Virus record (IMG/VR): IMGVR_UViG_2711768065_000005 | DNA length: 38,499 nt | Source of the DNA: a virus | Taxonomy: Duplodnaviria; Heunggongvirae; Uroviricota; Caudoviricetes | Direction: 5' to 3' (one strand) | Shown: one piece after another, positions 27,222-29,901 of the stretch | How positions within the stretch are numbered: position 1 is the stretch's first letter | Layout of the letters: every line of letters begins with the position of its first letter | Notes under the pieces: model-generated | Databases searched by the model: none | What the model was told of the DNA's origin: nothing | The model's input: only the letters and a program-made list of their open reading frames with translations | Translations under genes and position numbers: made by a program

Positions 27222-27895
27222 AGCCTGCTTCTCCTTGCCTTTCGGCTCGTAAGAGGCTAACCTACATGTGTCTAGCATGAAATTGGCCTCAGATTAATGT
27301 TAAGCGTCTTGCAGGACGCGTAATGTTAACTGGGGCTTTTCTCTATCTGCCTTTGGTGTTCATGCCCGAGGCAGATAGCCTCAAGCACCCGCAGCCATTC
27401 TACTTAACTACCGTTACCTCGCCAATATGAAATCAGTCAGAAAGGCGATCCATAAGAACAATAGCAAGACAATAAATCGCCATTACAGCCGTAATAGCCA
27501 GCGCACATTTGAGAACCAGCACCACAACCTCCTGTATTGGACGTAGACCAGTCCTGATGAATATGAGGCTGTCTCGTCAGTGATTCAATACAACTATTGG
27601 GTATAGTTTCTCTGATTTTTTCTGTGGAAATGGGGCACAACCACTAGTCACCACCAGCACTTCTTTTAATACGCAAAGTCCGACACAAGCTAACCTTCTA
27701 GTCCGCTTTGAGCGAAAAACAGCCATAATTTAGTGCCACGTATATAATGATAGAGCTATTCAAGCTAGCAATTCACATGTAAAAATTCAGAGGGTAGAAG
27801 CACATAGTTATAAATGTTGGCTCCATCGACAAATTGCGGTCTCAAGTACATTTATTAATGTTGCCCCCGCATTAACAAATCATCAAGGTGACGAC

Positions 27896-29683
27896 ATGGA
27901 CGATATTAATATCAGCCTCGACGAACTTAACACTATTGATTTATCCCCCTTAATCCAGAGTAAGCTGCCAGTTACCTGCTTTGATATCACAAAGTATCTT
28001 TCTAGCCTAGGTGATGGAAGAGCGGAGATAAGACTGCTAACCCATATTTGCGGTTTTCACTTTCGTCCCGAAAATCCACAGGTACCATTTGGTCCGTGCT
28101 TTCAAAGCAGCCAAGGTAGATCTGCAATTCCGGATGACATTAACGGGTTGTCGCTGGAGGTACTTTCTCAATTTTGCCCGACGATAGAGCTACCCGAACT
28201 TCAAGCTCGTATTGCTGATACACTTTGGGTTCGTAAAATTGGTGGAATCCGTTTTCCTTTGCTGGCAGTCCGTGCTTATTATGCGTCCAGTATAGCTATT
28301 ATGACATCGCAAGGGACGTGGGTTAGTGCTTTAGAACGCCTAGAGCGTGCGCTTAGGCTGTGTTGTTTTTTTCGAAAGAATACTGATTTCAGGGATGAAT
28401 TTGATCAGCTTTCGGCACATCTACTAGCAGAGTATGAACGTACCAGAGAACAAGGCGATTCACCTTATCCGCTGCGACTCCTGCAACTCGATATCGACTG
28501 TAAAGTGAGTGAGCCATCTTTTATTGCCCAGGAACTCCTGTTTCTGACAAAAAACTATCTGGCTCAAAAATTATTTTCATTTGCCGTCGATGCCTGTAAA
28601 ACCGCAATCACGATTGCGAATAGGTGCTGTGACAGAGATACACAGTTTGAATTCTGGCGGCTTCTTGCCGATACACATCTGGAAGAGTCAAAATTCCAAG
28701 ATGGCGGTATGATTTCGGCAGCCTGCATGCAGAATGCTATTGAAGCACTGGCTAATATTCCAGGAACCCGAATAGAACGTCTTGCGCTGTATGAAGAAAT
28801 GCGTGATTACCAAATCGAATCCCGTCACCAGATGTCTATCCTTCAGTCTCCCCCTCAAGATATTAGTGAGATTGTCCATCAAGCCAAGAGTCGGGTAGTC
28901 GGAAGAGATATGTTTGATATGGTTTTCAGACTTGCGATGCTGGTCTGTCGGCCAACCAGCATTGAGAGACTTAAGGCTCAAGCAATAGAACAAAAGGCCA
29001 ACAGCATAGCTTGGATGTTTGGATCAACACATATTGATCATGAGGGAATGACACTTGCTCGCATACCCGCAGGATTGGGGATTGATGATGCAAATGGGGC
29101 AGTTATTTGGCCCATAATGATGACGAGAATGCGTATCGACCATGAGTTGGCAGTAGCTGGGCAAATTATTCCTGCTACAGATGAGATCACAATGAAATAT
29201 CCAATCTCGGAGGCGTTTTTTCGCGATATGTTCATCAATCATCCCTTCATCCCGTTTGGGCATGAAGAGTTTTTCATCAAGGGTATGGTTTGCGGTTTCA
29301 ATGGAGATTTTATGACGGCATGCCACGTGTTGATTCCCCAGATCGAAAATAGTCTGAGATATGTGGCTAAAATTAAAGGTGAGGAACCATCGCAGCTTCA
29401 CGGGGACGGTTCGCAAGAGCGAAATGGACTCAAGGGATTACTAGATAATCCACTGATTATTGAAGCTTTCGGCGTAGACATAATTGGCAATCTTCAGGCC
29501 TTACTGGTAGATAAAATCTATGGTGATTTACGAAATCAACTAGCTCACGGATATGTGCCTGCCGGTTACTACAATCAACCTCCCTGCATTTTTGCATGGT
29601 GGCTTGTATTGCACATTCTAATGAACCCTACGGCGAGATACTGGCAAGCCACTTATGGCCAAGAGAGTGAGGCTCAGACTTAA
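27896..29683 (+). CDS. 595-aa protein with C-terminal R-x4-H (HEPN-type) motif; candidate abortive-infection/defence protein (ApeA-like or DUF4209-like?)
   Basis: Long uninterrupted ORF on the strand opposite to flanking phage genes; flanked by AT-rich non-coding DNA (27280..27895 and 29684..29901); motif DLRNQLAHGY (R at 29531..29533, H at 29546..29548); family names are recollection, not a database hit. Confidence is for the CDS being real, not for its function. Confidence 0.8.
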   Translation: MDDINISLDELNTIDLSPLIQSKLPVTCFDITKYLSSLGDGRAEIRLLTHICGFHFRPENPQVPFGPCFQSSQGRSAIPDDINGLSLEVLSQFCPTIELPELQARIADTLWVRKIGGIRFPLLAVRAYYASSIAIMTSQGTWVSALERLERALRLCCFFRKNTDFRDEFDQLSAHLLAEYERTREQGDSPYPLRLLQLDIDCKVSEPSFIAQELLFLTKNYLAQKLFSFAVDACKTAITIANRCCDRDTQFEFWRLLADTHLEESKFQDGGMISAACMQNAIEALANIPGTRIERLALYEEMRDYQIESRHQMSILQSPPQDISEIVHQAKSRVVGRDMFDMVFRLAMLVCRPTSIERLKAQAIEQKANSIAWMFGSTHIDHEGMTLARIPAGLGIDDANGAVIWPIMMTRMRIDHELAVAGQIIPATDEITMKYPISEAFFRDMFINHPFIPFGHEEFFIKGMVCGFNGDFMTACHVLIPQIENSLRYVAKIKGEEPSQLHGDGSQERNGLKGLLDNPLIIEAFGVDIIGNLQALLVDKIYGDLRNQLAHGYVPAGYYNQPPCIFAWWLVLHILMNPTARYWQATYGQESEAQT

Positions 29684-29901
29684 AGTGAATAAGTTTACGA
29701 AGTTGGCACTTCCGGATGCATGTCCATATGAGTTGAGGCGATTTGGTTAATAAGGTTGAGTGCTGCTGAAATTATTCGATGTCCGCTTTTGGCACAAAGC
29801 GGACAACCACGCCAGATCTACCCTGTGCCATGAAAAATGAGAATGTCAATTCACTCCTGAACTAATGCTTTTTAATCTAGTAACGTCTAAAATACCTAAC
29901 A

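Follow-up and report, generated by a model that had tools for sequence, protein, structure and literature searches.

A mobile DUF4209-family HEPN gene in the cargo slot of a Qin-type lambdoid prophage as a candidate single-gene defence system

Introduction

In the accessory region of Gifsy-1, a lambdoid prophage of Salmonella, HepS is encoded as a single HEPN protein that serves as both sensor and effector; it is triggered by the siphovirus tail-tip protein J, cleaves tRNA anticodon loops and causes abortive infection (Sargen et al., Nature 2026). The triggers of prophage-borne HEPN proteins can thus be narrow. Active HEPN RNases are characterized by an Rx4-6H motif whose arginine is followed by a polar residue and by an upstream E-x3-[KR] motif, and the DUF4209 domain was assigned to the HEPN superfamily under the name C6orf70 family, which was predicted to be catalytically active and was described as ‘fused to TPR’ and as one that ‘occurs in R-M related operons’ (R-M, restriction-modification; Anantharaman 2013). 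Here we analyzed a gene for a protein of 595 amino acids (aa) in a Caudoviricetes sequence of 38,499 nucleotides (nt), IMG/VR record IMGVR_UViG_2711768065_000005, which is referred to as the window over its whole length. The gene lies in an E. coli prophage, and the window matches a Qin-type lambdoid prophage integrated beside rspB/ynfA (100% identity across the compared region). An original prediction, made from the sequence alone, had regarded the gene as a HEPN-type defence gene of this prophage.

Domain composition and family membership

Pfam assigned two domains to the 595-aa protein above the respective cut-offs, namely DUF7380 (PF24098) at aa 4–166 (119.3 bits versus a cut-off of 27, E = 2e-34) and DUF4209 (PF13910) at aa 484–573 (34.0 bits versus 22.3, E = 3e-8). 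In addition, two PADLOC models of the defence candidate PDC-S39 matched over aa 43–581 (PDLC05012, E = 8.4e-103; PDLC05011, E = 2.6e-102), and the corresponding RefSeq record (WP_000340970.1) is named ‘DUF4209 domain-containing protein’. In an AlphaFold2 (AF2) model with a pLDDT of 90, the C-terminal part is predicted to form the four-helix up-and-down bundle of HEPN domains, with an insert between helices 2 and 3, and is fused to TPR-type repeats, an architecture already described for the DUF4209/C6orf70 family (Anantharaman 2013). A profile search of 1.84 billion representatives retrieved 7480 clusters at 50% identity, 2865 of them at E ≤ 1e-30, and the best 150 clusters all consisted of proteins of about 600 aa that matched over the full length. 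On every feature that could be tested, the protein belongs to the PDC-S39, or DUF7380+DUF4209, or C6orf70 HEPN family, and there is very little doubt that it is a HEPN protein of the DUF4209 family. PDC-S39 is the family itself, with no sequence-level difference, and is a computational candidate only.

Other resources added little. NCBIfam contained no match to the protein, and PHROGs contained matches to families of unknown function only. Sequence and profile searches of the PDB recovered no relative with a solved structure and only weak TPR matches, and a search of viral folds in BFVD gave nothing significant. A search with the N-terminal 330 aa, meant to reveal other effectors joined to DUF7380/TPR, recovered nothing but truncated versions of the gene itself.

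The original prediction, for which Pfam, PADLOC and structure prediction had been proposed as checks, had offered a DUF4209-like or an ApeA-like protein as possible identities. Pfam and PADLOC agree with the first of these, and the structure prediction with a HEPN four-helix bundle, whereas the second was wrong. The same prediction had suspected a sensor domain in the N-terminal region, and this region is indeed a distinct module, composed of DUF7380 and a TPR-like solenoid, which would suit a sensor role.

Among the characterized systems, the nearest functional analogue is HepS, likewise a single HEPN protein without a partner gene in the accessory region of a lambdoid prophage. Membership in the HepS family was rejected, because HepS is a standalone HEPN protein of <250 aa that forms a tetramer, whereas the protein studied here has 595 aa and two extra N-terminal modules; the HepS family is different from, and much smaller than, that of the DUF4209 protein. 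ApeA, reportedly described by Gao et al. in 2020, and Abi2/AbiD/AbiF resemble the protein in being encoded by single genes in defence islands or phage hotspots and in combining a larger N-terminal region with an Rx4-6H HEPN effector at the C-terminus, but the N-terminal domains here are DUF7380 and TPR. ApeA was rejected since neither HEPN_Apea nor ApeA_NTD1 was matched in Pfam (E ≤ 1) and PADLOC gave no ApeA match, and Abi2/AbiD/AbiF since Abi_2 (PF07751) was matched in neither Pfam nor PADLOC. An assignment to RnlA/LsoA or HEPN-MNT was also rejected, as there is no adjacent antitoxin gene of the RnlB/Dmd or MNT type and no conserved partner in other genomes. HEPN-MNT toxins are furthermore about four times smaller, and control of the protein here is presumably intramolecular. 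PrrC/RloC was rejected because Pfam found no N-terminal ABC-type ATPase domain and because the neighbourhood in the window contains no R-M genes. Human ERMARD/C6orf70 falls into the same Pfam HEPN family, PF13910, and is homologous by this assignment. However, the eukaryotic DUF4209 proteins are conserved, carry a membrane anchor and are predicted to function at the endoplasmic reticulum, whereas those of bacteria are mobile, have a patchy distribution and are predicted to be soluble.

Conservation of the predicted active site

The alignment comprised 52 full-length homologues, with identities down to 24%, whose sources were Enterobacteria, Vibrio, Pseudomonas, cyanobacteria and metagenomes. 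Twelve columns were invariant, including R546, H551, G552, Q482, E484, S486 and R488, and N547 was conserved in at least 90% of the sequences. Both motif hallmarks of active HEPN RNases are present in the protein, the Rx4-6H (including its polar residue) and the E-x3-[KR]. The former lies in DLRNQLAHGY (aa 544–553, with R546 and H551) near the C-terminus, the string from which the HEPN domain had originally been called. While the fold and the conservation pattern confirm the domain, the motif by itself was a weak argument: R-[NHQ]-x3-H turned up in 10% of shuffles of the protein, and a further RxxxxH (aa 411) lacks conservation. The significance of the R-x4-H motif thus derives from its invariance across homologues together with the fold.

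The ratio of nonsynonymous to synonymous substitution rates (dN/dS) between the prophage copy and a 96.6%-identical copy on a Klebsiella plasmid was 0.12. By this measure, the gene is functional and under strong purifying selection. Metal-independent RNase activity is predicted solely from the motif conservation, and we consider it probable that the protein is an active RNase.

A self-contained cassette in a cargo slot

The DNA common to the window and the Klebsiella IncF plasmids comprised exactly positions 27703..29804 (2.1 kb), which are the open reading frame (ORF) plus 193 nt upstream and 121 nt downstream. With so little sequence around the ORF, the mobile unit has no room for a second gene or an antitoxin. 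An unrelated viral contig (L090) carries the cassette over 27709..29804, where the gene is situated between an SOS-response peptidase gene and umuDC, and a further unrelated contig (L066) has the right-hand boundary at 29804 in common with it. At this locus, a self-contained cargo cassette of 2.1 kb is inserted into the nin region, antisense to the early-right operon. Its nin-like position between the replication genes and Q had been recognized in the original prediction, as had its orientation opposite to all neighbouring phage genes; the ORF list and the annotation of the neighbours, all on the minus strand, agree with both. Other parts of the earlier description need correction. The island had been placed at 27280–29901, but the left ~110 nt of this interval belong to hok/sok and 27391..27702 to the prophage backbone. 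It had also been called far more AT-rich than its flanks, which is overstated: the GC content was 44.0% in the island and 44.7% in the ORF compared with 50.0% in the left flank, 48.4% in the right flank and 49.3% in the whole window, and 17% of same-size windows in the prophage equalled or exceeded the AT-richness of the island. The argument from an AT-rich island is therefore weak.

Both ends of the cassette coincide with copies of a 24-nt palindrome with the consensus G-Y-CCGCTTT-N6-AAAGCGG-M-C (Table 1). The left copy, which is the top direct and inverted repeat of the region, is degenerate in the window but perfect in the plasmid copy and in sister prophages. Homology of the window to ~20 prophages with other cargo ends at 27718–27722 and resumes at 29773–29781, and the recombination breakpoints lie inside the palindromes for the Klebsiella plasmid, the unrelated viral contig and the ~20 sister prophages (L005, L013, L015, L036, L039, L062, L090 and L093 among all of these loci). 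Across the window the motif was not enriched (3 matches versus 2.1 expected), so that the significance of the palindromes rests only on their coincidence with the breakpoints. Since they lack a T-run, they are not intrinsic terminators. Judged by the breakpoints, the two palindromes delimit a slot for the exchange of cargo.

At least seven alternative contents of this slot were identified, among them relBE in the K-12 sister prophage (for others see Table 1). The slot is a general cargo site that often, but not always, holds genes of the conflict type. One insert of 3.5 kb (L036:1790–5320) encodes an adenosine deaminase (PADLOC CARF_ADA-like, 1e-35), a ThsA-like SIR2_2 protein (9e-32), a Ham1/ITPase-family protein and a TetR-like regulator, and looks like a nucleotide-targeting, defence-type cluster. 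The 310-aa cargo protein of another prophage (L062:5187–6119, minus strand) contains the R-x4-H motif YRSKAVHGG, had no match in Pfam or PADLOC, and may be another uncharacterized HEPN-type protein in the same slot. The E. coli K207-3 prophage (L012) was considered as an empty site and rejected, because its deletion extends from 27546 to 30006 and the 3' end of the DUF977 gene is also gone. This clean deletion of the whole slot does indicate that the region is dispensable for prophage maintenance.

The upstream region that travels with the gene contains a candidate promoter, whose hexamers are conserved except for one base of the −35 hexamer. An automatic scan for sigma-70 promoters and terminators called neither a plus-strand promoter ahead of the ORF nor a convincing terminator; the putative promoter was recognized by manual reading.

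Table 1 Features of the cassette, of its surroundings and of alternative contents of the cargo slot. Positions refer to the window; loci with other cargo are given by their locus number.
Feature	Position	Strand	Remarks
595-aa ORF	27896..29683	+	from six-frame ORF list; DUF7380, then TPR-like solenoid, then DUF4209-type HEPN; PADLOC PDC-S39
Upstream non-coding region travelling with the gene	27703..27895	+	about 95% identical to Klebsiella plasmid copy
Candidate promoter, TTCAGA, 17-nt spacer, TATAAA	27786–27791 and 27809–27814	+	manual reading
Shine-Dalgarno sequence AAGGTGA	27885–27891	+	ahead of ATG start codon
DUF7380 domain	27905..28393 (aa 4–166)	+	N-terminal part of presumed sensor/regulatory region; also in P2-hotspot relatives
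TPR-like alpha-solenoid	28193..28831 (about aa 100–312)	+	overlaps end of DUF7380
HEPN domain	29264..29677 (about aa 457–594)	+	
E-x3-[KR] motif, E484-N-S-L-R488	29345..29359	+	second HEPN active-site hallmark
R-x4-H catalytic motif, R546-N-Q-L-A-H551	29531..29548	+	polar residue after R
Left boundary element, GTCCGCTTTGAGCGAAAAACAGCCA	27701..27725	.	degenerate copy of 24-nt palindrome
Right boundary element, GTCCGCTTT-TGGCAC-AAAGCGGAC(A)	29781..29805	.	perfect 9–10-bp stem; inverted repeat I21
hokD toxin gene and full-length sok antisense RNA region	27066..27221 and 27216..27390	-	RefSeq; Rfam RF01794
Left neighbours of the ORF: hokD, rem, DUF968/ydfU gene, Q-type antiterminator ydfT	27066..27221 (hokD)	-	
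Right neighbours of the ORF: DUF977 gene, O-like replication gene, YdaT-like gene, cro	29902..30303 (DUF977 gene)	-	
Slot insert: HAD hydrolase and NUDIX	L039		
Slot insert: TetR, adenosine deaminase, Ham1 and SIR2 (ThsA-like)	L036		37% GC
Slot insert: single 310-aa protein	L062		own RxxxxH motif; no database match
Slot insert: GNAT and HTH-cupin	L093		
Slot insert: 195-aa hypothetical protein	L015 (pDCE7-1)		
Slot insert: QueH	L013		only right-hand boundary in common; left homology ends at 27455

Distribution of the cassette and of its family

Of 5426 complete E. coli genomes, 153 contained the cassette, that of ATCC 25922 among them; all copies were chromosomal and nearly all were ≥99% identical. 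In about 149 genomes the ORF was intact at ≥99% identity. A minority of the copies was interrupted by IS4, IS5 or IS3 elements or truncated (E. coli genomes including H1–H3, H83 and H130). At one locus (L091), an insertion of ~1.3 kb interrupts the 5' untranslated region (window 27848–27853), at another (L070) an insertion of ~1.9 kb hits the very codons of the R-x4-H motif (window 29527–29537), and in several genomes only a DUF7380 fragment is annotated. These independent insertions and fragments suggest recurrent inactivation. Such recurrent disruption fits a pattern often seen for costly genes, and we counted it in favour of a defence function.

Beyond the cassette, members of PDC-S39 (E = 1e-84 and 2e-67) occur in the tin/old hotspot of P2-like phages, between gpA and gpQ, in vB_EcoM-569R9 and P2-EC46. 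DUF4209 proteins were also listed as P2-hotspot systems #13 (193 occurrences) and #55 (76 occurrences; Rousset et al. 2022). An Enterobacter kobei prophage carries a family member between Q and the holin gene, and in V. cholerae and Pseudomonas the members form small chromosomal islets. No conserved partner gene was found in the Vibrio, Pseudomonas and Enterobacter contexts. On Chlorohelix, Natrinema and Aeromonas plasmids, the family gene is located beside methyltransferase, restriction or helicase genes. The distant DUF4209 member on the Chlorohelix plasmid (L016:1–4657) overlaps the start of a gene for a 945-aa DNA methyltransferase by 29 nt; in some lineages, its translation may thus be coupled to that of an R-M-type enzyme. 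Overall, the distribution of the family is as expected for a single-gene conflict system.

Proposed function and its alternatives

The function that we favour is that of an abortive-infection RNase. The protein would be made in the lysogen from its own promoter, convergent with the prophage early-right operon, and would be kept inactive by its N-terminal two-thirds. Recognition of a product or a consequence of infection by another phage through this N-terminal region would then activate the HEPN domains, which are probably paired in a dimer or higher oligomer. These would cut cellular tRNA, rRNA or mRNA without a metal cofactor, so that translation would stop, the infection would be aborted, and the resident prophage and the clonal host population would be protected. 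The proposal builds on the domain architecture, the HEPN fold, the two invariant motifs, purifying selection, the mobility of the single gene and its residence in cargo and defence hotspots. The remaining elements, namely the cleavage of RNA and its target, the autoinhibitory and sensory role of the N-terminal region, oligomerization and the anti-phage role, are modelled on PrrC/RloC, RnlA, Csm6 and HepS. We put the probability of the complete defence reading at roughly 55%. As for the claim of a prophage defence gene in the original prediction, the single-gene cassette, the variable cargo slot and the listing as a PADLOC defence candidate stand, but the anti-phage function is inferred from context.

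Several points weigh against a role in abortive infection. Searches of the accessible literature for DUF4209, DUF7380 and PDC-S39 retrieved no functional study and no demonstration of defence for any member; PDC-S39 appears there only as a PADLOC call in strain inventories. For the P2-hotspot member of E. coli S88 (pFR103, ‘Putative HEPN’), a clone under the native promoter was set against eight coliphages in MG1655, and the system is listed in Table S2B (‘additional tested systems’) and absent from Table S2A (‘validated defense systems’; Rousset et al. 2022). This negative result is the sole experimental datum for the family, and it comes from a small panel and from a protein that is about 24% identical to the one studied here. 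Moreover, RNase activity, target, trigger and oligomeric state are all putative, and because the eukaryotic relatives ERMARD/C6orf70 are of a housekeeping type, a HEPN domain alone does not imply defence. Finally, the slot also holds genes without an obvious defence role (QueH, a GNAT acetyltransferase and a HAD hydrolase), and residence in it is therefore only weak evidence for defence.

A more specific version of the abortive-infection proposal would be a self-sufficient RNase whose N-terminal solenoid directly binds one particular phage protein, with the palindromes serving as dedicated boundary elements for swaps of single-gene cassettes between lambdoid prophages and plasmids. We advance this version tentatively and regard it as rather doubtful. 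Recognition of one specific phage protein, in the way that HepS and Tha recognize tail proteins, would explain why a panel of eight phages missed the P2 paralogue, and the family, with over 7000 sequence clusters and eukaryotic members (ERMARD), would thereby gain its first function.

In an unlikely alternative, the protein would be an active HEPN RNase working for the mobile element or for host physiology and not in phage exclusion, for example in stress- or SOS-linked RNA turnover, in the control of prophage or plasmid transcripts, or in competition with plasmids or satellites. This would agree with the lack of validated protection by the P2-hotspot member against the eight coliphages, with the position of the cassette next to umuDC and SOS-type genes on the Klebsiella plasmids and in the viral contig L090, and with the metabolic genes that share the cargo slot. 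Eukaryotic C6orf70/ERMARD proteins, too, were predicted to be RNA-degradation factors, with no immune role (Anantharaman 2013). However, a patchy and mobile distribution (153/5426 E. coli genomes, hotspots, plasmids and islets) is typical of conflict systems and not of housekeeping genes, and the association with R-M genes and with the P2 tin/old exclusion locus as well as the guilt-by-association listing in PADLOC point to defence.

The association with R-M genes could also mean that the family acts as an R-M-linked guardian in the manner of PrrC/RloC, that is, as a latent RNase checked by or co-operating with an R-M system, of which the copy in the window would be an orphan. Besides the reported occurrence of the family in R-M related operons (Anantharaman 2013), the overlap with the large DNA methyltransferase gene in Chlorohelix would fit, as would the Natrinema and Aeromonas genes near a restriction endonuclease or a methyltransferase plus DEAD-box helicase. 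Nevertheless, we consider such a role improbable for this locus, since no R-M genes were found nearby in the window, on the Klebsiella plasmid, in V. cholerae, Pseudomonas and E. kobei or in the P2-like phages, the 2.1-kb unit moves alone, and the ABC-ATPase domain of PrrC/RloC is lacking according to Pfam.

More improbable still is a HEPN protein without nuclease activity, whose role would be that of a scaffold or regulator that binds RNA or nucleotides, or else that of an anti-defence factor on mobile elements. Some HEPN domains, such as MtlR and the substrate-binding HEPN domains of nucleotidyltransferases, are non-catalytic (Anantharaman 2013), and the Klebsiella plasmid copy is located near anti-restriction and other plasmid leading-region-type genes. 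Non-catalytic HEPN families typically lose the Rx4-6H motif (Anantharaman 2013), however, whereas R546, H551, E484 and R488 are invariant in the 52 homologues. Lastly, although insertion sequence-disrupted and truncated copies exist in some genomes, a decaying, non-functional remnant is effectively refuted by the selection and conservation data, namely the dN/dS of 0.12, the intact ORF in about 149 genomes and full-length conservation over thousands of clusters, and also by the confident structure model.

Surroundings of the cassette in the prophage

The neighbouring Hok gene, which had been noticed in the original prediction, is annotated as hokD and is accompanied by a sok RNA region that matched Rfam RF01794 with 116 bits over model positions 1–157 of 157. 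Hok/sok is a separate module outside the cassette. In K-12 Qin, homology to the window breaks 14 nt upstream of hokD, at 27235, and relE-relB-ydfV-flxA follow directly beyond hokD. Because the homology to K-12 stops just upstream of hokD and sok is complete here, the prophage carries an autonomous hok/sok module and not the relBEF arrangement. Just downstream of hokD, positions 26976–27057 on the minus strand weakly matched an isrK-like small RNA (25.7 bits, under the gathering score of 50), and this match overlaps a terminator-like hairpin at 26997–26980.

The ~310 nt between sok and the cassette (27391–27702) are kept in sister prophages regardless of the cargo. They hold a terminator-like hairpin at 27498–27479 and small minus-strand ORFs, one of which (27437..27640, 67 aa) has a C-terminus rich in Cys and Gly. 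The most AT-rich part of the prophage (33–43% GC) was located elsewhere, at 18500–24500, and is a stronger outlier than the cassette region. According to the matching RefSeq annotation, it contains the cold-shock paralogues cspB/cspF/cspI, gnsB, ynfN and lysis genes.

Implications

The gene is already labelled by Pfam, PADLOC and RefSeq, and the HEPN nature of its family was predicted in 2013; it does not represent a new kind of system. As existing resources label the gene and list it as a defence candidate, the finding is a catalogued, unvalidated candidate, for which the original prediction had identified a real gene, the right domain and the right Pfam family. If the cassette restricts phages, the DUF7380/DUF4209 family with its 7480 clusters would become a characterized immune sensor-effector. 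Such a finding would also offer a biochemical starting point for the HEPN domain of eukaryotic ERMARD/C6orf70, which is unstudied. A test should be easy, as the cassette measures 2.1 kb, brings its upstream region along and occurs in 153 complete E. coli genomes, one of which is that of ATCC 25922, a common reference strain. The palindrome-delimited slot, with at least seven contents and the same right-hand boundary in a plasmid, may also be relevant to the mosaicism of prophages.

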